A stretch of 13,781 nucleotides of DNA from positions 1 to 13,781 of the IMG/VR virus record IMGVR_UViG_2531839665_000026, one strand, 5' to 3'. Shown here piece by piece: positions 1-13,781 of the stretch. The notes under the pieces are model-generated. The model made no database searches. It was not told the origin of the DNA and saw nothing but the letters and a program-made list of their open reading frames with translations. How positions within the stretch are numbered: position 1 is the first letter of the stretch; each line of letters starts with the position of its first letter. A program made the translations under genes and the position numbers. The DNA is from a virus (taxonomy: Duplodnaviria > Heunggongvirae > Uroviricota > Caudoviricetes).

Positions 1-294
1 GGACATCATGCGAGCGGTCGGCTCAATTTCGGCATACAGTGCCGTGCGGCCTGCCAGCGGGCCATCGGTTATGTCTTCGGTGCTCAACCCCACAACATCG
101 CCCATAGCGGAAAACTCGCTACCGGGGAGTGGTGACAGGATGTGCTCAATATTCACACGTGCACCATAAACGGACGGGTTATAACTGGTGGCGGCAGCTT
201 TCAGCATGTCGCCGTTGATTTCGCGCCCGTCTGCCGTTACACCGGAGACAGCCACGCGAAACTTTTTGCGGGATGTCTTTTTTTCATTAGCCAT
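1..294 (-). CDS. O: Capsid scaffolding protein gpO-like, N-terminal 98 codons only (gene continues beyond left edge)
   Basis: Minus-strand frame is open from ATG at 292-294 to position 1, so it is absent from the ORF track. GAGGGG lies 8 nt upstream of the ATG. Translation begins MANEKKTSRKKFRVAVSGVTADGREINGDMLKAAATSYNPSVYGARVNIEHI..., which resembles the P2 gpO N-terminus as I recall it. It is divergent from P, as in P2. Confidence 0.75.
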   Translation of the reverse strand, partial: MANEKKTSRKKFRVAVSGVTADGREINGDMLKAAATSYNPSVYGARVNIEHILSPLPGSEFSAMGDVVGLSTEDITDGPLAGRTALYAEIEPTARMMS

Positions 295-448
295 AGTTTT
301 TGCCCCTCTGACTGGTTCTTCAGTCATGATGGCAAAGCGTAACAGGCTGATACAAAGGGCTTTTGTTGTAAGAAAACGGCCAGAACAGGGGGTTAAGGAG
401 AACAGTTTCGCGCGCGGGTAATCTTCCTGTAATTACTCAGGGGGAGCA
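295..448. promoter_or_regulatory. Divergent O/P intergenic region, expected site of the late promoters
   Basis: 154-bp gap between divergent start codons (O at 294, P at 449). This is positional inference only: I could not find a clean TGT-N12-ACA activator dyad of the kind described for P2 late promoters. Confidence 0.3.
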
Positions 449-2200
449 ATGATTCAGGACGCTTTTGTGCGCCAGCGTGCGCGGCAACTTTACTGGCAGG
501 GTTATCCGCCCGCAGAAATATCACGTCTGATGGGAATAAACCCGAACACGATTTATGCGTGGAAAAAACGCGACCAGTGGGATGAAACGCCACCCGTGCA
601 GCGTGTCACGCAGTCCATCGATGCGCGCCTCATCCAGCTCACTGAAAAACAGAATAAAACAGGTGGTGACTTCAAGGAAATAGACCTGCTGACCCGGCAG
701 CTTAAAAAACTGCATGATGGCCAGCCGGATGCGACGGCCACAGGAAAGAAAGGCCGGGCGAAAAAACTCAAAAATCATTTCACGCCGGAACAGATTGCCG
801 CACTGCGGGAAAAAATCATCAGCAGGCTGGAGTGGCATCAGCGGGGCTGGTTTGACTCCCTGACCCTTTGCAGGGAAGCCGGGATACGTAACAGGATGAT
901 CCTGAAATCCCGACAGATTGGGGCGACCTGGTATTTTGCACAGGAAGCACTGCTGATGGCGCTGCGTGACGATGTGGCGCAACCTTACCAGCGTAACCAG
1001 ATTTTTTTGTCTGCGTCGCGTCGTCAGGCGTTCCAGTTTAAAAGCATTATTCAGAAGGCCGCGGCTGAAGTTGATGTGGAGCTGAAAGGGGGCGATAAAA
1101 TCATCCTCTCAAACGGCGCAGAGCTGCATTTTCTCGGCACTTCTGCTGCGTCGGCACAGTCCTATACGGGCAATTTTTATTTTGATGAATTTTTCTGGGT
1201 CAGTCGCTTTGCCGAACTGCGCAAGGTGGCTGGCGCTATGGCAACCCTCAGCGGACTGCGGCGCACCTACTTCTCCACGCCATCCACCGAAACGCACGAG
1301 GCATACGCCTACTGGAACGGCGACCGCTGGAACGAGAAAAAGGCCTCGCATAAACGCCAGCGTTTTTCTGTGGACTGGAAAACGCTGCATAACGGGCTTA
1401 TCTGCCCTGACCGGACGTGGCGGCAAATTGTCACGCTGGAAGATGTGGTTAATCACGGCTGGAAACACACCGATATTGACGAAATCCGTGATGAAAACAC
1501 CGAAGACGAGTTCCTCAATCTCTATATGTGTGAGTTTGTTCGCGAAGGGGAATCGGCATTTAACCTGAATATCCTGATTGGCTGCGGTGTTGACGGATAC
1601 GACGACTGGAAAGACTGGAAACCTTTTGCTCCCCGCCCGATGGGGAATCGTCCGGTATGGATTGGGTATGACGCAAACGGCAGCAGTGGCAACGGGGACA
1701 GCGGCGCTGTGTCCGTGGTGGTTCCTCCGGCTGTTCCTGGTGGCCGTTTTCGAACGGTGGAGACGCGACGCGTTCAGGGGCTGGAGTTTGAAGAACAGGC
1801 CAGAGTCATTGAAGAGTTCACGTGTCGCTACAACGTGGAACACATCGGCATTGATGTGACGGGCGGGAACGGGGAGGCTGTTTATCAGATAGTGAAACGG
1901 TTTTTCCCTGCCGCTATTCCGTACACCTTCACGCTGTCATCCAAACGGTCGCTGGTACTGAAAATGCAGCAAATAATGCGTGCCGGACGGTGGGAATACG
2001 ATCGCGCCGAACGCGAGCTGGTCGCGGCCTTTAACGCCGTGCGTAAGGTGAAAACACCGGGTGGCTTTATCACTTACGAAACGGACCGCGCGAGGGGGAT
2101 CAGCCACGGCGACCTTGCGTGGGCAACCATGCTTGCTGTCATTAACGAACCAATTGGCGGCGAAGGAGAAAAACGAGCGTTTCACGGTTATGGAGTTCTG
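449..2200 (+). CDS. P: Terminase large (ATPase/nuclease) subunit gpP-like; no in-frame stop, frame continues into the portal
   Basis: N-terminal HTH-like segment (YWQGYPPAEISRLMGINPNTIYAWKKRDQWDE), Walker A-like KSRQIGATWYF, Walker B-like FYFDEFFW, and acidic nuclease-domain motifs (WIGYDANGSSGNGDSGAVSVV, HGDLAWATMLAV). The 584 codons before the internal ATG at 2201 compare with about 590 aa for P2 gpP. AGGGGG lies 4 nt before the ATG at 449. Confidence 0.85.
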
Positions 2201-3247
2201 ATGAGCAGAAAAAATAAAAAAGTGCGCATGAGTTCACGCATTGATCTCGCTGATGCGCTCAGGAAAGAATCATCGCTCAGTGCATTCACATTTGATGGTC
2301 CTTATCGCCTGACCGGGCATGACCTGCTGGACAATATGTACTGTGCTGATAACGGGCGGTGGTATGAAACCCCGGTGGACTGGTACGGTCTGGCAAGAGC
2401 CGCCCGGCAAACGTCCTGGCATCAGTCTGCGCTTTACTTTAAGCGCAATGTATTGCTCGGTTGCTACATCCCGCACCCGCTGCTTTCCCGGCAGGATTTC
2501 TCGGCGCTGGCGCTGGACTGGTTTGTGTTCGGTAACGCATTCCTTGAGCTTCGGAGCAATATGCTCGGCGAACCACTTAAATTACGGCACGCACTGGCGA
2601 AATACATGCGACGCGGAAGCGATCTTGAATCATGGTGGTATGTGCAGGATGGCAAGGACGCGTTTCAGTTTCGCCCTGGCAAAGTGTGCCACCTGATGAA
2701 TCCGGACATTAACCAGGAAATTTACGGCATGCCGGAATATCTCGGCGCATTACTCTCGGCCAGCCTGTCTCATTCGGCGGACATGTTCAGAAAACTGTAT
2801 TACGACAATGGATCCCACGCCGGGTGCATCATCTACATCGGTGCAGCGCAGGTAAACCGCGAAAGCATGGACTCCCTGAAAGAAACGCTACAGGGTGCGC
2901 GTGGTGGTGGTGCGTTTAAAAACGTGCTCATTCATGCGCCCAACGGGGGCAAAGAGGGGGTGCAAATTTTGCCGTTCCAGCAGATCACCGCAAAGGATGA
3001 GTTCATGAATGTTAAGGCGGCATCCCGTGATGATGTGCTGGCTGCGCACCGCGTTCCGCCGCAACTGATGGGGGCGATGCCGGGTGAAAAAAGTGCGTTT
3101 GGTGATGTGGAGAAGGCCGCGCGGGTTTACGCAATTAACGAGCTGATGCCCGTCATGGAGGCCATGAAGCATATCAATGACTGGCTTGGCGAAGAGGTGA
3201 TCCGATTTAACCCTTACGCACTGCTGGACACCCAGCCCACATCCTGA
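2201..3247 (+). CDS. Q: Portal protein gpQ-like (348 aa if initiated at the internal ATG at 2201)
   Basis: Follows P on the same strand as in P2. ATG at 2201 is preceded by GGAG at 2192-2195 (5-nt spacer). Length of 348 aa compares with about 344 aa for P2 gpQ. It has a basic N-terminus (MSRKNKKVRMSSR) followed by a conserved-looking core. Stop codon TGA at 3245-3247. Confidence 0.7.
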   Translation: MSRKNKKVRMSSRIDLADALRKESSLSAFTFDGPYRLTGHDLLDNMYCADNGRWYETPVDWYGLARAARQTSWHQSALYFKRNVLLGCYIPHPLLSRQDFSALALDWFVFGNAFLELRSNMLGEPLKLRHALAKYMRRGSDLESWWYVQDGKDAFQFRPGKVCHLMNPDINQEIYGMPEYLGALLSASLSHSADMFRKLYYDNGSHAGCIIYIGAAQVNRESMDSLKETLQGARGGGAFKNVLIHAPNGGKEGVQILPFQQITAKDEFMNVKAASRDDVLAAHRVPPQLMGAMPGEKSAFGDVEKAARVYAINELMPVMEAMKHINDWLGEEVIRFNPYALLDTQPTS

Positions 3248-3272
3248 CGCGCTTCGCTTGTCTGCTGCTTCG

Positions 3273-3297
3273 CCGGGGCATAAAAAATTTATGCCCC
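3273..3297. other. Perfect 11-bp-stem hairpin (CGGGGCATAAA / TTTATGCCCCG, loop AAA) 26 nt after the Q stop
   Basis: Inverted repeat read directly. There is no U tract on either side, so it is not a canonical intrinsic terminator. It could be an RNA-stabilising stem or a protein-binding palindrome in the cos-proximal region. Confidence 0.6.
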
Positions 3298-3575
3298 GAC
3301 TCTCCAGCTCCTGTATCAATCAGATAATTTCACGACGTCTTCCAGCTTATCGCCATCATCGACGGTCAGGCTCTTACGCAATCCCACTGCGCTGACTGCA
3401 TGTTCTCGCCGCCTCAGTGCGATTTTGACGGCCTTATCTGCTACCCCATCAAATCAAAAGTCCTCACGTCTTTTTCATGCTCAGCGTGAGAAATACAGCC
3501 ATTCTGTTGTGTCGCTGCGACATCGTTCAGGGGATGCTATTTACCCCCTGAAACGCGGGCTGTTCCCCCGTCACC

Positions 3576-3601
3576 TGCGCGCAGAAAAAGCGCGTTTTTT
3601 T
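3576..3601 (+). terminator. Intrinsic terminator for the P-Q transcript
   Basis: GC stem CGCGC (3578-3582) / GCGCG (3590-3594), loop AGAAAAA, followed by T7 (3595-3601). Confidence 0.6.
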
Positions 3602-3609
3602 GTGCACGC

Positions 3610-3628
3610 ACGGATCCTTGACGGATCC
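3610..3628. repeat. Direct repeat ACGGATCC x2 separated by 3 bp
   Basis: ACGGATCC at 3610-3617 and 3621-3628, immediately after the T-run of the plus-strand terminator. Confidence 0.5.
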
Positions 3629-3671
3629 AACTGCCACGCGGGCCGGAAGGGCAAAAATTCGTTCAAAAAAA

Positions 3672-3698
3672 TTGTGCAAATTTGTGCACTATTGTGCA
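3672..3698. repeat. Three helically phased direct repeats TTGTGCA at exact 10-bp spacing
   Basis: TTGTGCA at 3672-3678, 3682-3688 and 3692-3698. The middle copy contains the palindrome GTGCAC. They lie in the non-coding cos-expected region between Q and the cargo operon. Confidence 0.6.
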
Positions 3699-3705
3699 TT
3701 GAAAT

Positions 3706-3728
3706 AAACGCCCTGGAAGAGGGCGTTT
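3706..3728 (-). terminator. Stem-loop terminator ending the minus-strand cargo operon (partly bidirectional)
   Basis: AAACGCCCT (3706-3714) / AGGGCGTTT (3720-3728), loop GGAAG, 10 nt past the stop of the 112-aa gene. On the minus-strand RNA the stem is followed by AUUUC. Confidence 0.6.
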
Positions 3729-3738
3729 TGGCTCATTT

Positions 3739-4077
3739 CTATAGCTTTGATGCAGGCTGGGCTAGGTCTCCTTTGATGCCAGTGTTTACAACCTGACAAG
3801 CCTCTTTGAGTACCCAGTCAACAGCGTCTTTCCATGCTCCGGTTTCGGCTGGCGGATTCTCACGCTTTACCAGTTCATAGAATCGTACTGCTCTAACCAG
3901 TCCATCTGACGGTTTTGCCTGTAGTGCAGCCTGAGCTATGCGGTATGCCTGGAGCATACGGGCGTCGTTGATATCCATTCCGAACGGAATTTCTGATGAT
4001 TGTGATTCTGCATCTTCAAGCCTGGCAATTTCTTTACGTAAAAAGTATTTCAACTCTTGTTTTTGTTTTCTGTTCAT
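3739..4077 (-). CDS. Hypothetical protein, 112 aa, last gene of the cargo operon
   Basis: ORF with AGGGAA-type SD 6 nt upstream of ATG at 4077. Charged and probably helical ([26 protein letters not shown]...). No family recognised. AT-rich relative to the phage backbone. Confidence 0.55.
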
Positions 4078-4405
4078 GCGTTTTTCCCTTTTTGTCTGTC
4101 ACTTCTCTCCTGATAATTTCATTGCACAAATCCACGCACTCATTGCAGATGCAAACAGACGGTCCGGCAATCACCTTTGTGACTTCGTACTGAGATTTAT
4201 TGCAGAAGCTGCAATAAATCGTCTCCTCGCCTGAAGTCCATGTTTTGCTGGTTTCGCCAGACATCAGTTGTTTGAGGTCTTTTTCACGACGAAGAACTAT
4301 CTGGCCACATTCAGCTATTTTTTGGATGTTGACATTTTCTTCTTTCGCCAGCGCTTCCATCCGCTCAATCAGTCGCTGCGCTTTTTCTCTGTCAATGTGT
4401 TGCAT
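4034..4405 (-). CDS. Small protein (123 aa) with a ClpX-type C4 zinc-ribbon domain
   Basis: Residues around 62-100, [39 protein letters not shown], align almost position for position with the N-terminal zinc-binding domain of E. coli ClpX as I recall it ([40 protein letters not shown]). GGGGG SD lies 5 nt before ATG at 4405. The last 44 nt overlap the next gene. Confidence 0.65.
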
Positions 4406-4439
4406 TGTGTCCCCCTTGTTTATGTTCCCGGATTAAAGT

Positions 4440-4463
4440 CATCAGGGCGGATGCGCCCTGATG
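4440..4463. other. Intra-operon perfect hairpin between the parR-like and zinc-ribbon genes
   Basis: CATCAGGGCG (4440-4449) / CGCCCTGATG (4454-4463), loop GATG. A third copy of CGCCCTGAT follows at 4484-4492. Confidence 0.5.
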
Positions 4464-4468
4464 TTGTG

Positions 4469-4780
4469 TTATTCGGGAAATAACGCCCTGATATTTCCGG
4501 CCATCCGACTGGTTATCTGTGTGGTTGGTACTGGCTGTGACGCGGGGCGTTCTGTCCTGGTTTGTGTCACTGATAACGCCTCATCGTCAGCCCATGCAGC
4601 CAGTCGGTAAGCCTCTGCCGGATTCATTTTCAGAAGTGCCAGCCCGGCCAGAAAAGCCACACGTTGGCCGCTTTTGCGGGCTTCTGGTGTAAGGCTGTCC
4701 AGCCAGGCGCATGCTTCGCCTTCGTTCTTGACGGCGGCGGGCTTCAGATAGAAACTTATCCGTCTGGTTGGTGTCGTCAT
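4469..4780 (-). CDS. parR: ParR-like small DNA-binding protein (103 aa from internal ATG)
   Basis: Translation from ATG at 4780 (MTTPTRRISFYLKPAAVKNEGEACAWLDSLTPEARKSGQRVAFLAGLALLKMNP...NIRALFPE) parallels plasmid R1 ParR as I recall it (..RTIAFKLNP...CDTLDSIPQGERSRLNRAALTAGLALYRQDP...NILRSLFPKE). GGAG lies 7 nt upstream, inside the end of parM. There is a 4-nt gap after the parM stop. The upstream 45 codons of the ORF-track entry overlap parM and are not used. Confidence 0.65.
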   Translation of the reverse strand: MTTPTRRISFYLKPAAVKNEGEACAWLDSLTPEARKSGQRVAFLAGLALLKMNPAEAYRLAAWADDEALSVTQTRTERPASQPVPTTQITSRMAGNIRALFPE

Positions 4781-4784
4781 TGGT

Positions 4785-5744
4785 TTACTCCTTGTCCATT
4801 GCGTACAGCCCATTAACCAGAGCAAACTGTGGCACCCCGTCCGCGATGAAAGTCGCATTAACTCCGCAGGCTTCGCGGATAGCGGGTGCCGCAATCTCCG
4901 CCCCGCCACCGACAACCATCACCCGCCCGTAACCCGAAAAACCCGCCAGCGCGCGGATCACTCGTTGTTTCAGTGTTTCTTCCTTTTCACGAATAACCGC
5001 CATCAGGCTGTCGTAATGCGCGTCATTGTGGATGTGCTGGCGCAGCCAGGCTTCATCGTGGCGATGTTCGATAATGGTATTGGCGATATGGTGACTGGTA
5101 CGCATACCGTTAGTGGCCATCACCGACAGTACGGCATCGGCTATCAGGGAAACGCCTACGTGTGGATCGCAAAACACCTGGCTGATACCTGCCAGTTGTC
5201 CCTGGACCTTTGCCACATCCAGCGTGGTTCCGCCTAAATCCACAATCAGCAGGGATTCAAACGGACTCATGTCAGCCAGAGCCTTAAAGCCAGCCGGAAT
5301 GGATTCAGGCATAACCCGCACGTTACGGATAGTGAATGCTTCGCCGTTCTGGTACTCCACCGGGCGCATAACGTTCGCTTTTTTGCGGTTGATGTTGGCC
5401 ATGTCCGGCTGTGCGTTTGTGTCGAAATACTCGCTCAGTGGCAGGGTGACAACCACATCCACCTCCTGTGGCGTGATGCCTGATTTGACCAGTGCGTGAT
5501 GAATGGCAATGACATTCACATCGCTGTATTGGTATTGCGTGTCGGTCGTCTGGACAAAGCGATCGCTGACCGGATCAAAACCGTAGCGCACGCCATCAAG
5601 CATGTAGTTCGCGGGCTGCGTGCCACTGAACGGCGCAGACCATTCCGACTTGAAGCTGTTCGGGCTGATGGCGTTGCGGCGTTCGCCGTTCTCAGTCCAT
5701 GCCAGCTTGATGTTGGTGGAGCCGTCGTCGATACAAATTTTCAT
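4785..5744 (-). CDS. parM: ParM/StbA-like actin-fold segregation ATPase (319 aa)
   Basis: Alignable along its whole length to plasmid R1 ParM (StbA) as I recall it. Shared blocks include IDDGSTNIKL, YSDVNVIAIHHAL, VMPESIPAG, DLGGTTLD and VVGGGAE. Length of 319 aa compares with about 320 aa for R1 ParM. Confidence 0.8.
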   Translation of the reverse strand: MKICIDDGSTNIKLAWTENGERRNAISPNSFKSEWSAPFSGTQPANYMLDGVRYGFDPVSDRFVQTTDTQYQYSDVNVIAIHHALVKSGITPQEVDVVVTLPLSEYFDTNAQPDMANINRKKANVMRPVEYQNGEAFTIRNVRVMPESIPAGFKALADMSPFESLLIVDLGGTTLDVAKVQGQLAGISQVFCDPHVGVSLIADAVLSVMATNGMRTSHHIANTIIEHRHDEAWLRQHIHNDAHYDSLMAVIREKEETLKQRVIRALAGFSGYGRVMVVGGGAEIAAPAIREACGVNATFIADGVPQFALVNGLYAMDKE

Positions 5745-5776
5745 GTCGCTTTTCCTTATGTTGATTAATTAATCGT

Positions 5777-5811
5777 TTACGGGATTCTGAAATCCCGTTT
5801 TTGCCTGTTTT
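5777..5811. repeat. Repeat R1: 35-bp hairpin-containing unit in the A/parM intergenic space (candidate parC-like site or promoter)
   Basis: TTACGGGATTCTGAAATCCCGTTTTTGCCTGTTTT. The internal stem ACGGGAT/ATCCCGT is followed by a T-rich tail on the plus strand. Confidence 0.6.
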
Positions 5812-5820
5812 GTGCGCGCT

Positions 5821-8643
5821 TCATATATCGCTGCGCGTTTTTTGCTCATTTACGGGATTCGTGAGTCCCGTTTCTGTCTGTTTTTTGTTTCCACTGGTCA
5901 GGCCACCCTGCAGCAGGTCTGCTTTGCGGTTGGCGCGTTCAGTGGTTTCACTGATTCTCTGTGCGTGCTCTGCGTCACGGATGGCGCGCAGCATGTCAGA
6001 AAGCACGGTAACGGGGGTTTTCATGGTGTTCTGGTCCTGCTGAAGTGTGGATGCCAGACGTGCGGCGGCTTCGGGGTCTGATGCCCCCAGTTGTTCCAGA
6101 TAGCTGGCGACCGGGTTATGGCGGATCTCTGTGCTGCTTACGCCGTGATTACGGCTCAGGCGCTGCCAGAGCTGCGTGATTCGGCTGTCCGGGCGGGTAT
6201 CCGGTTTGCGTACAATTTCAAATCCCTGCGGTGCAATGATGCTGCCGTCAACGTACAGGCTGCCGCCCCGTAGCAGGTGCTGCATCTGCTGTTCACCGAT
6301 ATGCAGGCCGAGAGATTCGGCAGACTCCCGCCATTCTTTAGCGAGTAATTCGTGGTTATCAGGCAAAGGCCGCTGCTGTTTGCGGCTCTGTGTCCAGCTC
6401 TGCATTTCATCACTGCTGTTTTTTGCCTGTTTGTCACGAAGCGAACGCATCAGCGCCCGGCGTTCGTGCCGTTTCAGTGAGCGCATCCATTCGTTCACTT
6501 CAACGCCATCAGGGAGCTGCGGCCACGGTGCTGGCTGTTCTTCCGGCTGTTCTGTCCCGTTGTTGTTCGTTTCCTGTACACGGGGACAGTTATTGCCACG
6601 AGTCCAAGGGGCGGCAGGGCCGCCCTGAAGGTCAAAACCATTTTCGCGGGCGCTGTCTTCCGCTTCCGGTTTACGTCTTACCAGCTTCCAGTTATCCGGA
6701 TGTGTGCACACACGGGAAGACTCCCCGATGAGTGGTGACCAGATCCCGTAAATCTGTACGCTCTGTTCGCCGTAATCGTTCAGCTCATCTGCGAGGTCGT
6801 AGGCGGTGCGAATCAGGTAGTCTTTGCGTGGAACAAGTACGCCGCCCTGTTTCTCAATGTAGGAGGCAAAACATCCGGCATCAGCGGCAGCGAGCACTGC
6901 ATCCATTGCGTCATCCTTCAGCCGTTGCGGGCCTTCCGGGTTGCGTGCCATCTGGCTGGCAAGGCGACGCAGTTCACGCCACACCTGACGGGAGGGGATG
7001 CCAAAGAACTGGAACTGGCGGACCCGGTGAAGGCGCGCCCAGCCAATGGCGCGTTCCACGCTCTCGGTCATTGATTTTCCGGTTTCGTGGTCAACGCGTG
7101 GTTTGCCTGTTTTCGGGTCGATGCCATCCACGGCGCGGCTGTCCAGGTTCTTTCCGATGTAGGTGGCGATGTAGCTGGTTGGCGTGCCTTTTGAGCCGTC
7201 GACGTACTCCGCTTTAAAACGCGGAGTTATGTCATCGCCCAGCTCGTGGCGGTCTTCCTGAATGGCAATATCGCAGACGTGGGACACGATGGTTTCAATC
7301 TCGTCCGGATGTGCAAAGACCATCATATGCCAGTGCACGGTGCCGTCATGGTGAGGCTCCACCGTGCGGATGCCATACCAGCGCAGGCCGTCGCGGTTCA
7401 GTTTCTTGCGGACCGCCGCAAAAAACGTGTTAACCAGGTAATCGCTGGAGTCGCGCATGGTGGCCCCGTTCCATTTGGGATTCGGATGACCGTTCTCTGT
7501 TGTAGCGTGGTATTTTGACGGGCAGGTGACAGTCAGAAACACCGCTCTGTCGCCACGGGCTTCGGCCAGAAGTTCCAGTCCCTTCATGGTGGCCATCATT
7601 TCTGCCTTACGGTGAACCGGGTTACTTACTCCCGCGTAATACACTGTCTCGAGATCAATCGTGAACCCGTCTTCATTTTCCAGCATGAAACTTTTCAGGA
7701 AATCGCGTGTTTTCTCGCGCTGTGCGCGAAACTCGCTTAACGCGTCCTGGCTCAGATAGGGTGATGTTTTTCTGGAAACCAGACAGGCGGCGCGGAGTTG
7801 TTCTTCTCTCCACTCGCAACGTAACAGCCACAATTTGCGTTTCCACCAGTCCGCACAGGTCAGGCGAAGGATTGCACCCGGCAGCAGTTCTGTGTCCGGT
7901 TCGTTCCTCCGGTCTTTGTCTGTTGTCAGTGCGTCATAATGTGGAGGCATGGTGTGCAGATGTAACGCCATGCGAGCCAGCAGCTGATACGCCTTCAGCG
8001 TTATATCCATGGTCAGCTCGCCATCGGTCGCGCCAAAGCCATCGCAGAGTTTTTCGAAGGTGCTGCTGAACATTGCCGCCGTCATGACGGCCAGTGTCTG
8101 TATCTGGTGTTTGTTGAGCTGCGGCAGGTAAAGTAAATCGTCCAGACGTTCACGTCCGGCAAGGGAGCGATAACCCGGAGTCAGCCAGCGTCCGTCAGTG
8201 CGGGCCAGACGTTCCAATATTTTGCGCAGGGTTCCGCGTGCATAGCGTTCCGCCTGCCAGCTCTTTTTGCCTTTCCGGCGATCGGCTTCCTGCTTTTTGC
8301 GCAGGAAGGAGAGGTGGCGAATAAGCGGATCGCGCAGATAGGACGGCAGCAGGCGCAGCGAGGCCATGGCTTCATCCACCGCACCGCGTGCCTGTTTTCT
8401 GGCGTCTCTGGCCAGTGTGATGGTTTTGTCCTGCTTTTCCTGTGCGTCCAGGCTTTTATTAATCAGGTTGCCCAGCGGCGTTGCGGAGAACGCCGCATCA
8501 GCCATTTCCTGGCGTCGCTCGTTCTCTACCCGGTAAGCATCCAGCCAGGAGGAAAGCGCGGATTCAGGTGCGGGGATCCCCGTACCTTCACGCCCTACTG
8601 CGTGGCGCGGTTGTTGCCAGTCCCTGATGTACTCTGTCGTCAT
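5821..8643 (-). CDS. A: Rolling-circle replication initiator gpA-like (HUH endonuclease), 940 aa
   Basis: Long minus-strand ORF with an HUH-type motif (TVHWHMMVF) and paired tyrosines (TSYIATYIGK), as in the P2 gene A protein. It sits downstream of cox and the small early genes, as in P2. It is longer than P2 gpA (about 761 aa) because of a C-terminal extension. Confidence 0.85.
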   Translation of the reverse strand: MTTEYIRDWQQPRHAVGREGTGIPAPESALSSWLDAYRVENERRQEMADAAFSATPLGNLINKSLDAQEKQDKTITLARDARKQARGAVDEAMASLRLLPSYLRDPLIRHLSFLRKKQEADRRKGKKSWQAERYARGTLRKILERLARTDGRWLTPGYRSLAGRERLDDLLYLPQLNKHQIQTLAVMTAAMFSSTFEKLCDGFGATDGELTMDITLKAYQLLARMALHLHTMPPHYDALTTDKDRRNEPDTELLPGAILRLTCADWWKRKLWLLRCEWREEQLRAACLVSRKTSPYLSQDALSEFRAQREKTRDFLKSFMLENEDGFTIDLETVYYAGVSNPVHRKAEMMATMKGLELLAEARGDRAVFLTVTCPSKYHATTENGHPNPKWNGATMRDSSDYLVNTFFAAVRKKLNRDGLRWYGIRTVEPHHDGTVHWHMMVFAHPDEIETIVSHVCDIAIQEDRHELGDDITPRFKAEYVDGSKGTPTSYIATYIGKNLDSRAVDGIDPKTGKPRVDHETGKSMTESVERAIGWARLHRVRQFQFFGIPSRQVWRELRRLASQMARNPEGPQRLKDDAMDAVLAAADAGCFASYIEKQGGVLVPRKDYLIRTAYDLADELNDYGEQSVQIYGIWSPLIGESSRVCTHPDNWKLVRRKPEAEDSARENGFDLQGGPAAPWTRGNNCPRVQETNNNGTEQPEEQPAPWPQLPDGVEVNEWMRSLKRHERRALMRSLRDKQAKNSSDEMQSWTQSRKQQRPLPDNHELLAKEWRESAESLGLHIGEQQMQHLLRGGSLYVDGSIIAPQGFEIVRKPDTRPDSRITQLWQRLSRNHGVSSTEIRHNPVASYLEQLGASDPEAAARLASTLQQDQNTMKTPVTVLSDMLRAIRDAEHAQRISETTERANRKADLLQGGLTSGNKKQTETGLTNPVNEQKTRSDI
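5849..5883. repeat. Repeat R2: second copy of the 35-bp unit, lying inside the last codons of gene A
   Basis: TTACGGGATTCGTGAGTCCCGTTTCTGTCTGTTTT. 29 of 35 positions match R1, with most differences in the hairpin loop. It sits 72 bp to the right of R1. Confidence 0.6.
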
Positions 8644-8649
8644 ACTGAT

Positions 8650-9015
8650 TTACTTCGTCATGCCATTCAGGGTGTCACGGCAAACGGCAGCCAGACGCTG
8701 AATTTCCAGCACGGTGTCTTCTGTGTCGGCATGGCGATGTGTGATGCGGATGCTGTCGGCAATCACATCGACGATTGCAGAGGATGGGCGCTGGTAAATG
8801 CCAATAACGGACGGGGTGCCACCTTCAATGCGGTAAAGCCTGTAATTTCCCTCGTGGCTGTCAATCATGTAGCGACCATCAATAACAATCTTTCCGTCAG
8901 CGAGCTGCGGTACAGGCAGGGATTTCAGGTACATGTCATAACGATCACGCACGCGAGCGGCAAGATCACGCTCTGTGTTGAGCAGGTATTCAAGAAAGTC
9001 GTTGGCGAGAATCAT
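8650..9015 (-). CDS. Hypothetical early protein, 121 aa
   Basis: ORF with AAGAGGA SD 8 nt before ATG at 9015. Its stop is 7 nt before the A start. No family recognised. Confidence 0.6.
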   Translation of the reverse strand: MILANDFLEYLLNTERDLAARVRDRYDMYLKSLPVPQLADGKIVIDGRYMIDSHEGNYRLYRIEGGTPSVIGIYQRPSSAIVDVIADSIRITHRHADTEDTVLEIQRLAAVCRDTLNGMTK

Positions 9016-9087
9016 TGCGGCAATCCTCTTGTTACAGATGTGCGAAGGCCTCCCGCCGCAAGGTGCAGGAAAGGCCCGGAACAGGAA

Positions 9088-9318
9088 TTAATGGAGTTTG
9101 TTTTGCTGCTGGATGAGCTGTTGAAGCTCGTGCAGATCATCCGCCAGATAACTGAAAACAGAGGCGGAATAAATGTTTGATAGTGCGTGGCTGCGCTCAT
9201 GCAGCATATTGATGTGCATGATTTGCGCGACGCGTGATGCGCGGAAAAGTCTACGGTTGATTTCAGTCTGGATGTGACGACGCGCAGCGTATGCGCGCTG
9301 TTGTTTGCGGTTTGCCAT
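9088..9318 (-). CDS. Hypothetical early protein, 76 aa
   Basis: ORF with AGAGG SD 7 nt before ATG at 9318. Basic N-terminus (MANRKQQRAYAARRHIQTEINRR). Confidence 0.55.
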   Translation of the reverse strand: MANRKQQRAYAARRHIQTEINRRLFRASRVAQIMHINMLHERSHALSNIYSASVFSYLADDLHELQQLIQQQNKLH

Positions 9319-9361
9319 GGTGTGGCCTCTTTGCTCGGTGATAGAAATAGCTCACCATCCA

Positions 9362-9404
9362 GAGTTGAGAATCTCGGGGTGGCGAGACGTACAGGGTTCT
9401 CAAC
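9362..9404. repeat. Inverted repeat GTTGAGAA ... TTCTCAAC (25-nt loop), with a third direct copy of GTTGAGAATC at 9540-9549
   Basis: GTTGAGAATC at 9364-9373, its inverse TTCTCAAC at 9397-9404, and GTTGAGAATC again at 9540-9549. Both direct copies are preceded by CTTTGCTC. Confidence 0.55.
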
Positions 9405-9495
9405 ACCGGAGAGCAAAGAATCCGGCCCGACCGAAGTCGGCCCCGTACGCCCCGCCATAATTCTGACGCGAAAAAGACGTGGCAATACAGTACGC

Positions 9496-9518
9496 ACAAA
9501 AAAACCGCTGGCGCGGTT
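9496..9518 (-). terminator. Intrinsic terminator on the minus strand, downstream of the 67/88/99-aa gene block
   Basis: Stem AACCGC (9503-9508) / GCGGTT (9513-9518), loop TGGC. The plus-strand A7 run (9498-9504) becomes the U tract of a minus-strand transcript. Confidence 0.6.
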
Positions 9519-9590
9519 ATGCGCTTTGCTCTGTATCGGGTTGAGAATCCCGGCACCCGTTTTATGAGGTGCAGCGGAAATGTAACCTGA

Positions 9591-9619
9591 CCGATTGCGG
9601 CATGGCAAGCGGTTTTTTT
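9591..9619 (+). terminator. Intrinsic terminator on the plus strand, ending an unannotated plus-strand transcript
   Basis: CCGATTGC (9591-9598) / GCAAGCGG (9605-9612) with one A-G mismatch, loop GGCATG, followed by T7 (9613-9619). Confidence 0.5.
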
Positions 9620-9640
9620 GTGTGTGCATGTTCTGGTTTC

Positions 9641-9940
9641 TTACTGGTTCAGAAAAAAATCAAAAACCTTGTCAATGCGTTGCAGCAGCTCTTGCTGTAT
9701 TGCTTCCGGCGTTTCCGGTTCGCCGGGTGCCTCCAACGTCGCGCAGAAATCAGCGATTTCATGATGGAGTGTCAGGCGAATGGCAGGAGCCGTGGTTCTG
9801 GCGTGCTCCAGCTCATCCAGCAGTGCCAGCACAGCAGACGGCGAGAGCATTGCGCGAAACGCCAGTAATTTTTGAGGCGTTGCCATTCGTTGCAGGGCAA
9901 ATGCCAGTTCGCGTAGCTTCTGGTGGTTGATGGTGCTCAT
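9641..9940 (-). CDS. Hypothetical protein, 99 aa
   Basis: ORF whose ATG overlaps the upstream stop as ATGA (9937-9940). No family recognised. Confidence 0.55.
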   Translation of the reverse strand: MSTINHQKLRELAFALQRMATPQKLLAFRAMLSPSAVLALLDELEHARTTAPAIRLTLHHEIADFCATLEAPGEPETPEAIQQELLQRIDKVFDFFLNQ

Positions 9941-10203
9941 GTTCTGGCTTCCTTCAGTAGCTGGTTAAACATGTGAGTAAGTGGATTGCTACACCCGAAC
10001 GGCATCGGGTTTACGTGGTAAGAAGCCTGGCCTCCAGTTTTGCGAGCGCGACCACCTGTGCTGCGGTTTGTTCTGATGACTAAGCCGCCGCGCCAAAGTT
10101 GGCGTAACTCAGCATTAATGGCTGTGGTTGGAGTATTCAGTGCTGCGGCGATCTCTCCGCCGCTACAACCCGGATGAGTAGCGATGTAGTCCAGAATGGT
10201 CAT
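9937..10203 (-). CDS. Putative winged-helix DNA-binding protein, 88 aa
   Basis: ATGA overlap with the upstream gene (10200-10203). The N-terminal LDYIATHPGCSGGEIAAALNTPTTAINAELRQL is typical of a wHTH recognition segment. This is a weak fold-level inference. Confidence 0.5.
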   Translation of the reverse strand: MTILDYIATHPGCSGGEIAAALNTPTTAINAELRQLWRGGLVIRTNRSTGGRARKTGGQASYHVNPMPFGCSNPLTHMFNQLLKEART

Positions 10204-10403
10204 CTGCGTGGCTCCTGTACCTGTCGGATAAGATTCACCCGCGCCACGTTGGTGGCGCAGAAGTAAGTGCCGTCAGTGAGGTAGATGTGGTGTGCATCCT
10301 TTTCCGAACGATGTTTGTCGATAGTGGTAATCAGGCGTTCGTCGACCTCGTATTCGCGCCCTCTGGAGGTAAAGCGAACGACGGGAAAATGCTTAATTGC
10401 CAT
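10200..10403 (-). CDS. Hypothetical protein, 67 aa
   Basis: Strong AAGGAGG SD 5 nt before ATG at 10403. First gene of a three-gene translationally coupled block. Confidence 0.55.
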   Translation of the reverse strand: MAIKHFPVVRFTSRGREYEVDERLITTIDKHRSEKDAHHIYLTDGTYFCATNVARVNLIRQVQEPRR

Positions 10404-10489
10404 TACGCCTCCTTGGCGTGTGCGAATACCTCCGCGAATGCGGATTGTTTTTACATTTTCTTATTTAATCTGTGGTTTTATTTGCTCTG

Positions 10490-10603
10490 TTATTCGCCAG
10501 TGAAAAAGCGTTCAATCTTTTTTATTGAATGAATAATTCGCATAATCCCAATAGCGCAGGCCACCGAAATAATCAGAACAAGCCATGAGATAAATATACT
10601 CAT
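10490..10603 (-). CDS. Small hydrophobic peptide, 37 aa (below the ORF-track cutoff)
   Basis: ATG at 10601-10603 overlaps the stop of the upstream 80-aa gene as ATGA. Translation MSIFISWLVLIISVACAIGIMRIIHSIKKIERFFTGE has one predicted transmembrane helix and a basic tail. Confidence 0.45.
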   Translation of the reverse strand: MSIFISWLVLIISVACAIGIMRIIHSIKKIERFFTGE

Positions 10604-10842
10604 GCGATATTCCCCAGCTCATACGGTTCAATATGTTCCCCGCATTCTGCGGCACAGATCAGCTCGGAAAGTTCGTTAAGTGCATCCAGATCATCAGCGT
10701 AAAAAGCCACGTCATACAGACTTCGGATTGCTCTGGTCAATGAGTCACGGGCCGCACGTTCAGCATGAGCGCCTGATGCACTTAAGCGAAAATAAAAGCG
10801 CTCAAGTGCTTTGTTAATGAGAGTTTTATATTCTTTGCCCAT
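10600..10842 (-). CDS. Hypothetical protein, 80 aa
   Basis: ORF starting 11 nt after the stop of the upstream gene. No family recognised. Confidence 0.5.
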   Translation of the reverse strand: MGKEYKTLINKALERFYFRLSASGAHAERAARDSLTRAIRSLYDVAFYADDLDALNELSELICAAECGEHIEPYELGNIA

Positions 10843-10853
10843 CGCAACGCCCT

Positions 10854-11141
10854 TTAATCTGCTTTCTGAATTTCAGTTTCTGAATCCATACAGATAATTT
10901 CGATATAGGGTTTATCGCCATTAACCTGACGAGCCTTTTCAGCTTCGCTAATGATTTCGCGTACGGTCTGGTACGGAAGTTCCACGATCAGTCGCGTGCC
11001 GTTCAGATAAACGTAAGTGGCTTCGGCGGCTCCGTTTTTCCCCGCCGGAGCCACTCCATCAATAGCGGATGCGCGTAATAACAGTTCACCGCGAAAATCA
11101 ATAAAGCGGATAAATACACCTTGAGTATGGTCTTTAGTCAT
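10854..11141 (-). CDS. Hypothetical protein, 95 aa (internal start of the 115-codon ORF-track entry)
   Basis: ATG at 11141 is preceded by AGGTG (5-nt spacer) and avoids overlap with the upstream gene. The longer start at 11201 would overlap that gene by 50 nt. Confidence 0.5.
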   Translation of the reverse strand: MTKDHTQGVFIRFIDFRGELLLRASAIDGVAPAGKNGAAEATYVYLNGTRLIVELPYQTVREIISEAEKARQVNGDKPYIEIICMDSETEIQKAD

Positions 11142-11151
11142 AAAGCACCTG

Positions 11152-11493
11152 TTATAAATCAGCCTGTTTAATAAAACTCTGTCCACGCAGCAGACGATCA
11201 ACCGTGCGAAGCGCTTCGTATAATGTGAAATCCTGCCCGAACTGATTGTCGCCGCTGCTCAGAGCAAAAATGCGGTTTCCGGTAAACGGATTGCGCGGGC
11301 ATTTGTGGACCACGATTCCAGCTTTCTCAATCAGCCAGGCATGCTCGCCGATTTGTTTTACTGGGTAGCCATCCGGCGTTGCGTGTGTATCACTCAGGCT
11401 GTAGCGGATGTTGCTGCGTGATGCACTGGTAGCAAAACGGTTAGCGTGGCGTTCTGCACCATTGCGAAAGCGTGAATTACGTTGCTGTTTCAT
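11152..11493 (-). CDS. Hypothetical early protein, 113 aa
   Basis: ORF in the early operon between cox and A. It may correspond positionally to one of the P2 early genes (B region), but I cannot confirm this by sequence. Confidence 0.5.
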   Translation of the reverse strand: MKQQRNSRFRNGAERHANRFATSASRSNIRYSLSDTHATPDGYPVKQIGEHAWLIEKAGIVVHKCPRNPFTGNRIFALSSGDNQFGQDFTLYEALRTVDRLLRGQSFIKQADL

Positions 11494-11494
11494 G

Positions 11495-11602
11495 TTAAAG
11501 ACTCTGTACAGATTTAATTATTCCGGCATAGAGGCCGAACTCAAAATATTTGCGATTAAATCGCATCGCATTGTTTTCACGTTTTGCGGACTGCTGGTTC
11601 AT
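11495..11602 (-). CDS. Small ORF, 35 aa (below the ORF-track cutoff)
   Basis: GGAGG lies 8 nt before ATG at 11602. Its stop TAA is 1 nt before the ATG of the 113-aa gene. Translation MNQQSAKRENNAMRFNRKYFEFGLYAGIIKSVQSL. Confidence 0.4.
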   Translation of the reverse strand: MNQQSAKRENNAMRFNRKYFEFGLYAGIIKSVQSL

Positions 11603-11653
11603 TTTCGTTTGCCTCCGCACATGAGAATTGCGCCGCTTAAGAGGTAACCGAAG

Positions 11654-11676
11654 TTAATTGATAGTATTACAATTAA
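11654..11676. repeat. Inverted repeat TTAATTG-N9-CAATTAA in an intergenic gap of the early operon
   Basis: Read directly. It lies between the 68-aa membrane protein gene and the 35-aa ORF. It may be an operator or an internal promoter element. Confidence 0.4.
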
Positions 11677-11745
11677 CATAAGGTCCAATTTGTCCATGCC
11701 ACACATAATTACCCTCATTGCAGTAGTTGTGGGTTGTCAGGTTTC

Positions 11746-11952
11746 TCACCCGATAAACCAGATAACAAACGCTATCAACATCGCCCCAATAGCTGCCGGG
11801 AAAAGTCCTTTGGTATAAGCGGCGATATATTCAATGCTGAGTTCAATAAAGCGTTCTTTATGTCCCGTTAACTTGCGAAACAAATAGATCTCTATTACGC
11901 CTATCTCAATAAAAACAAGGGTCAGAATGGCGCTGATGATATGGCTGGTCAT
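11746..11952 (-). CDS. Small membrane protein, 68 aa, two predicted transmembrane helices
   Basis: Starts 6 nt after the cox stop. Two hydrophobic stretches (IISAILTLVFIEIGVIEIYLF and AAIGAMLIAFVIWFIG). Confidence 0.5.
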   Translation of the reverse strand: MTSHIISAILTLVFIEIGVIEIYLFRKLTGHKERFIELSIEYIAAYTKGLFPAAIGAMLIAFVIWFIG

Positions 11953-11958
11953 TTATGA

Positions 11959-12246
11959 CTAAAGTCCCAGCCACAACAACCATGCGTCGCGGCGTTCTTT
12001 CGGTTGCTCAAAAAACGCTTTGCGCATGCCTTCGTTAAATGCTGGCAGATATACCCAGTTTTCTGATGCACGCGTCTTTACTGAACCTGGTTTCACAAAG
12101 TCAATTGTTGGTAGCTTTGCTGCGTCAATCATGGTTCTGACTGTGGATTCCTTGCGGCCGATCATCTTGGCGAATAGTTGATATGGCACCGCTTCAAGTG
12201 GATATGGTGCTACCTGAATGAACCCCCCAAGCTCTGATTCGCTCAT
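11959..12246 (-). CDS. cox: Cox-like excisionase / early-operon regulator (95 aa)
   Basis: Matches P2 Cox as I recall it (VPYQLFAKMIGRKESTVRTMIDAAKLPTIDF...ENWVYLPAFNEGMRKAFFEQPKERRDAWLLWLGL against ...IPYQEFAKLIGKSTGAVRRMIDKGKLPVIDM...EYWVYLPAWNNGLKLAYESRPKEIRDGWLMWLGL). AGGGAGA SD. Divergent from C. Confidence 0.85.
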   Translation of the reverse strand: MSESELGGFIQVAPYPLEAVPYQLFAKMIGRKESTVRTMIDAAKLPTIDFVKPGSVKTRASENWVYLPAFNEGMRKAFFEQPKERRDAWLLWLGL

Positions 12247-12320
12247 TGTGGTAATCTCCCTAATTCGTTCGAATGGCTCAAAATGGCTTATATCGGCTTA
12301 TTTGAGTGTTTTTATGTTTG

Positions 12321-12366
12321 TGCCCGATGTGGCATGTTGTGATGGAGGACATGCCCGATATGGCAT
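12321..12366. promoter_or_regulatory. Putative immunity operator: two 15-bp direct repeats in the cox/C switch region
   Basis: TGCCCGATGTGGCAT (12321-12335) and TGCCCGATATGGCAT (12352-12366), 31 bp apart. The second overlaps the likely C start. A consensus TTGACA on the minus strand at 12370-12375 abuts the second repeat. P2 C is known to bind a pair of direct repeats at the early promoter. Confidence 0.5.
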
Positions 12367-12680
12367 CTTTGTCAAGCATGGGTGAAAAATTTCGCCTGAT
12401 TCGTGAAGCAGAAGGTATGACCCGCCAGGAGTTTGCGGATTGTGTTGGGCTGCCTTATGGGACGGTAACTAACTATGAGGTGAGGGGGAAGCAAGTAACA
12501 GAGGGTGCCTTACTTAAGGTTACGAAACACCCTAAATTTAAGAAGTATGCTTATTGGTTATCAACAGATGAAACGATGCCGGAGGTCGGGCAAATTTCTC
12601 CGGCTCTCTCTCTTGATGGTTCCTGCAATTCGGAGGGAGATCGCGTTTCAACCGAAACAATCCAAAAATTATCCCGCTGA
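12360..12680 (+). CDS. C: C repressor-like immunity repressor (106 aa from ATG at 12360)
   Basis: MGEKFRLIREAEGMTRQEFADCVGLPYGTVTNYE...KFKKYAYWLSTDETMPEVGQISPALS parallels P2 C as I recall it (ISEKIVLMRKSEYLSRQQLADLTGVPYGTLSYYE...QFTKYTLWFMTNQIAPESGQIAPALA). The start is ambiguous between 12342, 12360 and 12378; the ORF-track start at 12306 is unlikely. Confidence 0.8.
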   Translation: MASLSSMGEKFRLIREAEGMTRQEFADCVGLPYGTVTNYEVRGKQVTEGALLKVTKHPKFKKYAYWLSTDETMPEVGQISPALSLDGSCNSEGDRVSTETIQKLSR

Positions 12681-12776
12681 GGCCAGAAAACTGGTTAGAC
12701 CTGCTTTTTGTCTGGTCTGATTATTGCTGGAAAGAGGCTGGAGAAATTGTAGAGCGGTTCATTGGAGGGCTTCGTA

Positions 12777-13781
12777 ATGTCGATTAAGAAGCTCGAAGAT
12801 GGTCGTTATTTGCTGGACATCAGGCCGAACGGACGCAAGGGAAAGCGCGTGCGTAAGGTATTTGACAAAAAATCGGTAGCGGTGGCCACTGAACGCTACA
12901 TCATGGCGAACGCTGAAAAGCGGGAATATATACAGGGCTACCGTGATCGTCGAACGCTAAATGATTTGCTTGAGTTGTGGTGGATGTATCACGGCCAGCA
13001 CAGGCGTAAGGCGGAAGAAGACCGAAAACAACTGCGCAACATAATCAATGAGCTTGGCGCTGATATGCAGGCTGTGGATCTTGATAAGCTGAAAATTATC
13101 GCGTGGCGTTCTCAAAAGATAGCTGATGGATTGAAACCGTCATCTGCTAACAGGTACATGAATCGGTTATCCGGAATGTTTACCGTGCTGAAAAAAATAG
13201 GTCTTTGGGATGCAGAACATCCAGTAAGGGGAATTTCTATTCTTTATGTATCTCCACGAGAAATGGCGTTCCTGTCACAGAAGGAAGTGGCGCTATTGCT
13301 CGATACACTGGAGGGCGACTACTGGCGTGTTGCGCTTTTGTGTTTAAGCACAGGGGCGCGCTGGAGTGAAGCTTGTAAGCTTCGTGGTGAACAGATAGTT
13401 CATAACCGTGTAACGTTTCTTGAAACCAAAAATGGCCGGAAGAGAACAGTGCCAATTTCGCAGGCAGTTTGTGAGGCGATCAAAACCAGAGAAACAGGCG
13501 GCTTGTTTGAGGTGAAGTACCGGGAATTCTGCCTGGCGCTGAAAAGAGTTAAGCCCGATTTACCAAAAGGCCAGGCTGCACATGTGCTGCGGCATACGTT
13601 CGCCAGCCATTTTGTGATGAACGGAGGAAACATTATTGCGCTTCAGAAGATTCTTGGTCACGCAACCATTCAGCAAACAATGGCATATGCGCATTTTGCA
13701 CCGGATTACCTGCAGGATGCGGTGGCCCTTAATCCGCTGAAAGGTGGCGTAAGTGTCCACGCAGTGTCCACGGGGGATTAA
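12777..13781 (+). CDS. int: P2-type tyrosine integrase (334 aa)
   Basis: From ATG at 12777 (GGAGGG SD with 7-nt spacer): MSIKKLEDGRYLLDIRPNGRKGKRVRKVFDKKS..., with the catalytic region ...LRHTFASHF...LGHATIQQTMAYAHFAPDYLQDAVALNP. This closely parallels P2 Int as I recall it. Stop codon at 13779-13781, the window edge. Confidence 0.9.
   Translation: MSIKKLEDGRYLLDIRPNGRKGKRVRKVFDKKSVAVATERYIMANAEKREYIQGYRDRRTLNDLLELWWMYHGQHRRKAEEDRKQLRNIINELGADMQAVDLDKLKIIAWRSQKIADGLKPSSANRYMNRLSGMFTVLKKIGLWDAEHPVRGISILYVSPREMAFLSQKEVALLLDTLEGDYWRVALLCLSTGARWSEACKLRGEQIVHNRVTFLETKNGRKRTVPISQAVCEAIKTRETGGLFEVKYREFCLALKRVKPDLPKGQAAHVLRHTFASHFVMNGGNIIALQKILGHATIQQTMAYAHFAPDYLQDAVALNPLKGGVSVHAVSTGD

Follow-up and report, generated by a model that had tools for sequence, protein, structure and literature searches.

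The single 932-codon frame that joins a large terminase to a portal protein in an Escherichia coli prophage is, on the evidence of sequence alignment, the by-product of one extra A, which turns a run of four A residues (A4) into a run of five (A5) at positions 2169-2173. The window, that is, the whole stretch of 13,781 nucleotides that was analysed, begins with the first base of contig AFAA02000036.1 (682 kb) in the draft WGS assembly GCA_000194495.2 of Escherichia coli 4.0967. The genes concerned are the well-known terminase/portal pair of P88-like prophages, which in this draft assembly carries a one-base homopolymer insertion seen only once. A private one-base insertion without designed function, be it a sequencing error or a recent mutation, is very probably all that lies behind the fused frame. 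The fusion does not represent a novel type of protein, and there is nothing unusual about its biology.

A preliminary description of this DNA had reported an uninterrupted terminase-portal frame at 449-3247, and an ORF check together with Pfam and PHROGs profile searches confirmed this. The ORF lies on the plus strand, starts with ATG, is free of stop codons throughout and encodes 932 aa. In GenBank, its product is deposited as EII32132.1 (932 aa, AFAA02000036.1 449-3247) and annotated as “phage portal protein, PBSX family”. We found that the ORF consists of a large terminase of the P2 gpP type (aa 1-574) and a portal protein (aa 585-932), both of them complete. The terminase part matched the Pfam domains Terminase_5 (aa 6-63, 1e-26), Terminase_6N (aa 150-374, 2e-49) and Terminase_6C (aa 405-566, 2e-31), and thus shows the gpP-type order of an HTH/gpP-like domain, the ATPase (Terminase_6N) and the RNaseH-like nuclease (Terminase_6C). 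Residues 1-577 were likewise assigned to the large-terminase families phrog_5751, phrog_5909 and phrog_3746. The portal part, from aa 585 to about aa 929, matched PF04860 (Phage_portal) and phrog_68, the latter with an E value of 4e-152 and over positions 1-342 of the 344 profile positions. Since the phrog_68 match starts at aa 585, the portal part begins exactly at M585, which corresponds to the ATG at 2201. Besides this full-length profile match, the portal gene has its own GGAG (2192) and its own ATG (2201), and its protein has the same sequence as the portals of P88 and of strains 4238 and TW10573. The computed mass of the fusion is 106.0 kDa, compared to 66.8 kDa for a separate terminase and 39.3 kDa for a separate portal. 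A stand-alone terminase of about 576-584 aa with the conserved ...(V/A)MEF/Y tail is absent from the window, where the tail is replaced and the frame enters the portal. The features of this region are as follows:

1-294, minus strand: gpO capsid-scaffold gene, 5' part only, truncated by the contig end (PF05929, Phage_GPO_N; range in the record, 1-13247).
449-2168, plus strand: part of the large terminase gene (P2 gpP type) that is in the normal frame, recognised by Pfam and PHROGs; the 583-aa terminases of P88-like prophages share 98-99% of its aa sequence.
2169-2173, plus strand: the lesion, a homopolymer of five A where the relatives have four (alignment).
2171-2200, plus strand: ten out-of-frame codons, KRAFHGYGVL (aa 575-584), an accidental linker that replaces the terminase C-terminus NERFTVMEF* (translation).
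2192-2195, plus strand: GGAG, the Shine-Dalgarno sequence of the portal gene, 5 nt 5' of the ATG at 2201; the junction is the same in relatives.
2199-2203, plus strand: TGATG, the normal terminase stop and portal start, which share one base (annotation of relatives); the TGA is out of frame in the window.
2201-3247, plus strand: portal gene (gpQ type, 348 aa), intact and predicted to be independently translatable (Pfam and PHROGs; 0 of 1047 nt different from E. coli 4238).

The terminase part also carries a substitution in the nuclease domain. Codon 507 (1967-1969) is Gln (CAG) in the window and Leu in five relatives and in the cluster representative P0003, and is therefore a second change in the terminase gene that is absent from all six compared sequences.

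Alignment of the terminase-portal region of the window with P88, E. coli 4238, vB_EcoM-569R5, R1 and TW10573 revealed exactly one gap, namely the A5 versus A4 difference. The window reads GAG-AAAAA-CGAG, while every relative examined reads GAG-AAAA-CGAG. When one A is deleted, the 583-aa terminase is restored and ends ...GGEGENERFTVMEF (...GENERFTVMEF) at the TGATG overlap. The extra A sits 28 nt before this normal terminase stop. The TGA at 2199-2201 overlaps the portal ATG (2201) as TGATG and lies, in the window, in frame +1 relative to position 449. Sequence inspection showed that the ATG at 2201, the TGATG at 2199-2203, the GGAG at 2192-2195 and the +1 frame of the TGA are all as the preliminary description had them. 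Its suggestion that a single indel within roughly 2145-2198 would explain the fusion also held, the junction alignment to P88 and others identifying this indel as the extra A at 2169-2173.

The reading frames upstream of the junction needed correction in two respects. A TAA bounding the open stretch does exist, but it is found at 2143-2145 in frame +2 and not, as had been proposed, at 2142-2144 in frame +1. Furthermore, the +1 frame is not open from a TAA only, but extends from a TGA at 2049-2051 to the TGA at 2199. Frame +2, which contains the TAA at 2143-2145, is the portal's own frame in the A4 sequence, so that the fusion-prone stretch reaches back no further than this TAA (about 54 nt). 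Relative to the terminase, the portal of an A4 sequence is read in the -1 frame, in which the 54 nt between the TAA and the ATG contain no stop. Because of this open stretch and the TGATG overlap, any one-base insertion within the 54 nt, and only there, reads through into the portal. The extra A lies inside the stretch and, consequently, the terminase frame is shifted into the portal frame at the portal's own ATG. Where a stop/start overlap of the TGATG type is preceded by a short open stretch, a single inserted base is thus enough to fuse neighboring genes by accident.

The closest relatives of the prophage are P88-like Peduoviridae, including Escherichia phage P88, vB_EcoM-569R5 and others, with 97.5-98.8% nucleotide identity, and related prophages were found in 1,069 of the 5,426 complete E. 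coli genomes. The gene order is that of a P88-like (Xuanwuvirus-type) Peduoviridae prophage, with gpO, terminase-portal, cargo, ParM/StbB-like genes and gpA, and further on cox, C and int. The integration site next to pdxB was seen in relatives only, as the junction lies just outside the window. In P88, E. coli 4238, vB_EcoM-569R5, R1 and TW10573, the 583-aa terminase and the 348-aa portal have a gene each, and the two genes share the A of TGA/ATG; this two-gene TGATG junction is conserved in three Peduoviridae genera. The junction, ATGGAGT(T/A)CTGATG, is alike in P88, Enterobacter phage phiT5282H and Klebsiella phage 3LV2017; the terminase ends with ...FAMEF* in phiT5282H and with ...TVMEY* in 3LV2017, each followed by TGATG. 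Three readings of the fused frame had been offered at the outset: a real translational fusion that might be normal for the lineage, a disabling frameshift and a sequencing error. The latter two are supported by our data, whereas a fusion normal for the lineage is refuted, since the relatives all have two separate genes. Two genes with the TGATG overlap are present in relatives deposited as phages (P88, vB_EcoM-569R5, phiT5282H and 3LV2017) and in over 1,000 prophage copies of E. coli (60 of 60 sampled).

The distribution of the two alleles was analyzed in several sequence collections. Among the 1,054 matching records of complete E. coli genomes, an 81-mer carrying A5 had no perfect match and none of at least 99% identity, while the repaired 80-mer carrying A4 was found exactly in 214 E. 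coli records. In these 81- and 80-mer searches, a record combining A5 with a nearby SNP would not be recognizable from its identity value, and we relied on 60 records that were sampled evenly from the best to the weakest match of the A4 80-mer; all 60 span the full 80 nt, are free of indels and have two annotated genes. A shorter probe for A5 (24-mer) had no exact match in viral, species-representative genome and metagenome collections. The corresponding A4 23-mer, which served as positive control, matched at least 120 viral contigs. At the protein level, no 932-aa homologue was found among 5.8 billion protein clusters, and the product of the window is one sequence from one contig inside a cluster whose 7,319 sequences are otherwise ordinary terminases. 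Recurrence of the fused architecture in independent relatives was thus not seen in the genome, viral, metagenome or protein-cluster searches. A literature search on natural terminase-portal fusions, the accession and strain E. coli 4.0967 likewise returned nothing. Judged from these collections, the draft assembly of E. coli 4.0967 is alone in carrying the extra A.

Whether the extra A is a miscall or a very recent inactivating mutation is a nearly even choice. We slightly favor a sequencing or assembly error, either in homopolymer base-calling or in the consensus, and give it an even chance of being correct. The A run would then have been miscalled in the draft of E. coli 4.0967, resulting in a spurious A5, and the real genome would contain two ordinary genes encoding a 583-aa terminase and a 348-aa portal. 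The repaired terminase gene differs from that of E. coli 4238 at 8 of 1752 nt (3 aa), and the portal gene at 0 of 1047 nt. Comparison with the relatives did not reveal any other isolated single-base coding indel or a second lesion in the 13.8 kb, and the remaining prophage genes of the window are full length, with lengths as in the relatives, apart from gpO, which is cut by the contig end. Pristine genes with a lone indel fit a consensus miscall as well as a very recent, private slippage mutation. The indel, its uniqueness and an ancestral state with two genes are established by the comparisons, and an error is what we infer from them; single-base indel errors do occur in public records of the same phage family (NC_049343). 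On the other hand, the lack of other isolated coding indels means that the assembly is not obviously error-prone locally, and a run of 4-5 A is a less typical site of consensus errors than longer homopolymers.

That the prophage of E. coli 4.0967 truly acquired the extra A by a +1 slippage mutation a very short time ago, and hence is at an early stage of decay, has a probability somewhat below one half. The cell would in this case have no free large terminase, but a predicted 106-kDa protein made of terminase residues 1-574, the 10-aa out-of-frame linker and the whole portal. The deposited sequence does carry A5, and short homopolymers are natural sites of slippage. Moreover, A5 is a singleton on a terminal branch with genes otherwise pristine, which is what a recent neutral hit in a resident prophage should look like. 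Public assemblies contain further singleton disruptions of this gene pair (proteins P0001 and P0002, discussed below), and the contig end inside gpO leaves room for damage elsewhere in the prophage. However, every one of these observations is equally expected under a miscall, and the lack of a second lesion in the window also speaks against this reading.

With respect to gpO, the gene is 837 nt long in the relatives, and the structural half of the prophage (the rest of gpO, gpN, gpM, gpL and the tail genes) is located on another contig or is absent. The contig break inside gpO suggests a repeat at this position, such as a second P2-like prophage or an IS element.

In tailed phages, docking of the terminase on the portal ring is transient: once packaging is over, the enzyme must depart before the head can be completed and the tail joined. 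Terminase and portal ring also differ in copy number. A terminase bound covalently to the portal should be unable to depart from the filled head, and its copy number should not fit that of the portal ring. If A5 were real, a 106.0-kDa chimera would replace the free terminase, while free portal would probably still be made from the internal GGAG and ATG. With such a link in place and the conserved ...MEF tail lost, packaging would presumably be abolished or poisoned, which would make the prophage packaging-defective and an unremarkable case of early decay. The finding matters mainly for annotation: we conclude that EII32132.1 should be corrected to a frameshifted terminase plus a normal portal and that it provides no evidence for natural terminase-portal fusions.

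A selected, functional terminase-portal fusion, as a new packaging-motor architecture or in another role such as interference with related phages, is very improbable. The frame is open, both domains are complete and the portal start is retained, but the arrangement is not conserved: a 932-aa homologue is missing among the 5.8 billion clusters and A5 is missing from the collections searched, the relatives in three genera have two genes, and the linker is out-of-frame sequence in place of the conserved ...MEF C-terminus. Just as little weight is given to the idea that A5 is real and that the 106-kDa fusion would be made, be stable and co-assemble with free portal from the internal start, either as a tethered motor with some packaging or as a dominant-negative product that would poison the packaging of P2-like phages or satellites in E. 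coli 4.0967. Least credible of all is programmed recoding, in which the ribosome would shift frame, or transcription would slip, at the A run and yield separate and fused products throughout the lineage, because the -1 portal frame of the A4 sequence, although open for 54 nt before the ATG, is short and TAA-bounded, no relative gives evidence of a fused product, and 4-5 A fall short of the run length that a polymerase needs to slip efficiently. A programmed -1 frameshift site was also rejected as a candidate, as no zero-frame slippery heptamer (X_XXY_YYZ) occurs in the final 54 nt of the terminase gene of P88 and the nearest one lies about 300 nt upstream.

Several further features of the window were recorded. 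A perfect 7-bp inverted repeat, GGGGCAT...ATGCCCC, is located at 3275-3297, 28 nt past the portal stop; it is not followed by a T-run and was therefore not called by the terminator scan. The segment between portal and partition genes (3698-4470) could not be aligned to the nearest relatives, and its content varies by genome. At the equivalent position, strain R1 has a Phd/Doc toxin-antitoxin, strain 4238 an S8 peptidase, and other genomes have DUF4760 or Ead/Ea22 genes. In the window, it contains a 112-aa ORF (phrog_26213/660) and a 123-aa ORF with a ClpX-type zinc finger (phrog_6797). This segment looks like a cargo hotspot, and PADLOC defence models gave no match to the small cargo ORFs downstream of the portal. 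On the minus strand, at 4469-5744, the integrated P2-like prophage encodes a plasmid-type partition pair, a ParM/StbA-like actin ATPase (319 aa) and a StbB-like protein (103 aa), which is conserved across the P88-like family. In the early region, two stretches (9290-9535 and 10026-10056) are strongly diverged from R1 and TW10573 amid sequence that is 96-97% identical. One of the two lies inside a MarR-like gene (9937-10203), and the divergence suggests mosaic replacement. The prophage integrase and the C-like protein are very widespread, with 13,380 and 21,326 index blocks, respectively.

Compared to known systems, the gene pair of the window is like that of P88 and P88-like prophages (Xuanwuvirus) and like the gpP/gpQ pair of P2 in gene order, domains and the GGAG...TGATG junction, with 97-99% nucleotide identity. 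The neighbors are also those of P88-like prophages, with gpO and gpN upstream on the other strand, ParM/StbB-like genes, gpA, cox, C and int downstream, and attachment at pdxB. Unlike in the P88-like pair, the extra A takes the terminase stop out of frame and replaces the last 9 residues, which converts two genes into one ORF. Two other proteins, P0001 (708 aa, MDX5553496.1) and P0002 (698 aa), come from two other E. coli assemblies and resemble the product of the window in that the same gene pair of this prophage family is joined, in a single assembly each. They connect the terminase ATPase domain (to about aa 367-371) with the portal from about residue 12-17, and the nuclease domain is gone. 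In contrast to the window, which loses the terminase tail only, P0001 and P0002 have each lost about 225-235 codons by an in-frame deletion, and with them the nuclease domain and the portal N-terminus. They are singleton, independent disruptions of the same gene pair and unrelated to the fusion in the window. Another parallel is NC_049343 (Escherichia phage 500465-2), where single-base length differences also alter the gene calls in near-identical sequence. In this RefSeq record (NC_049343.1/CP025901.1), which looks error-ridden, the terminase is annotated as three CDS and the portal as three CDS, with eight single-base indels relative to all relatives. Thus, eight 1-nt indels split two genes into six CDS there, whereas in the window one indel fuses two genes into one.
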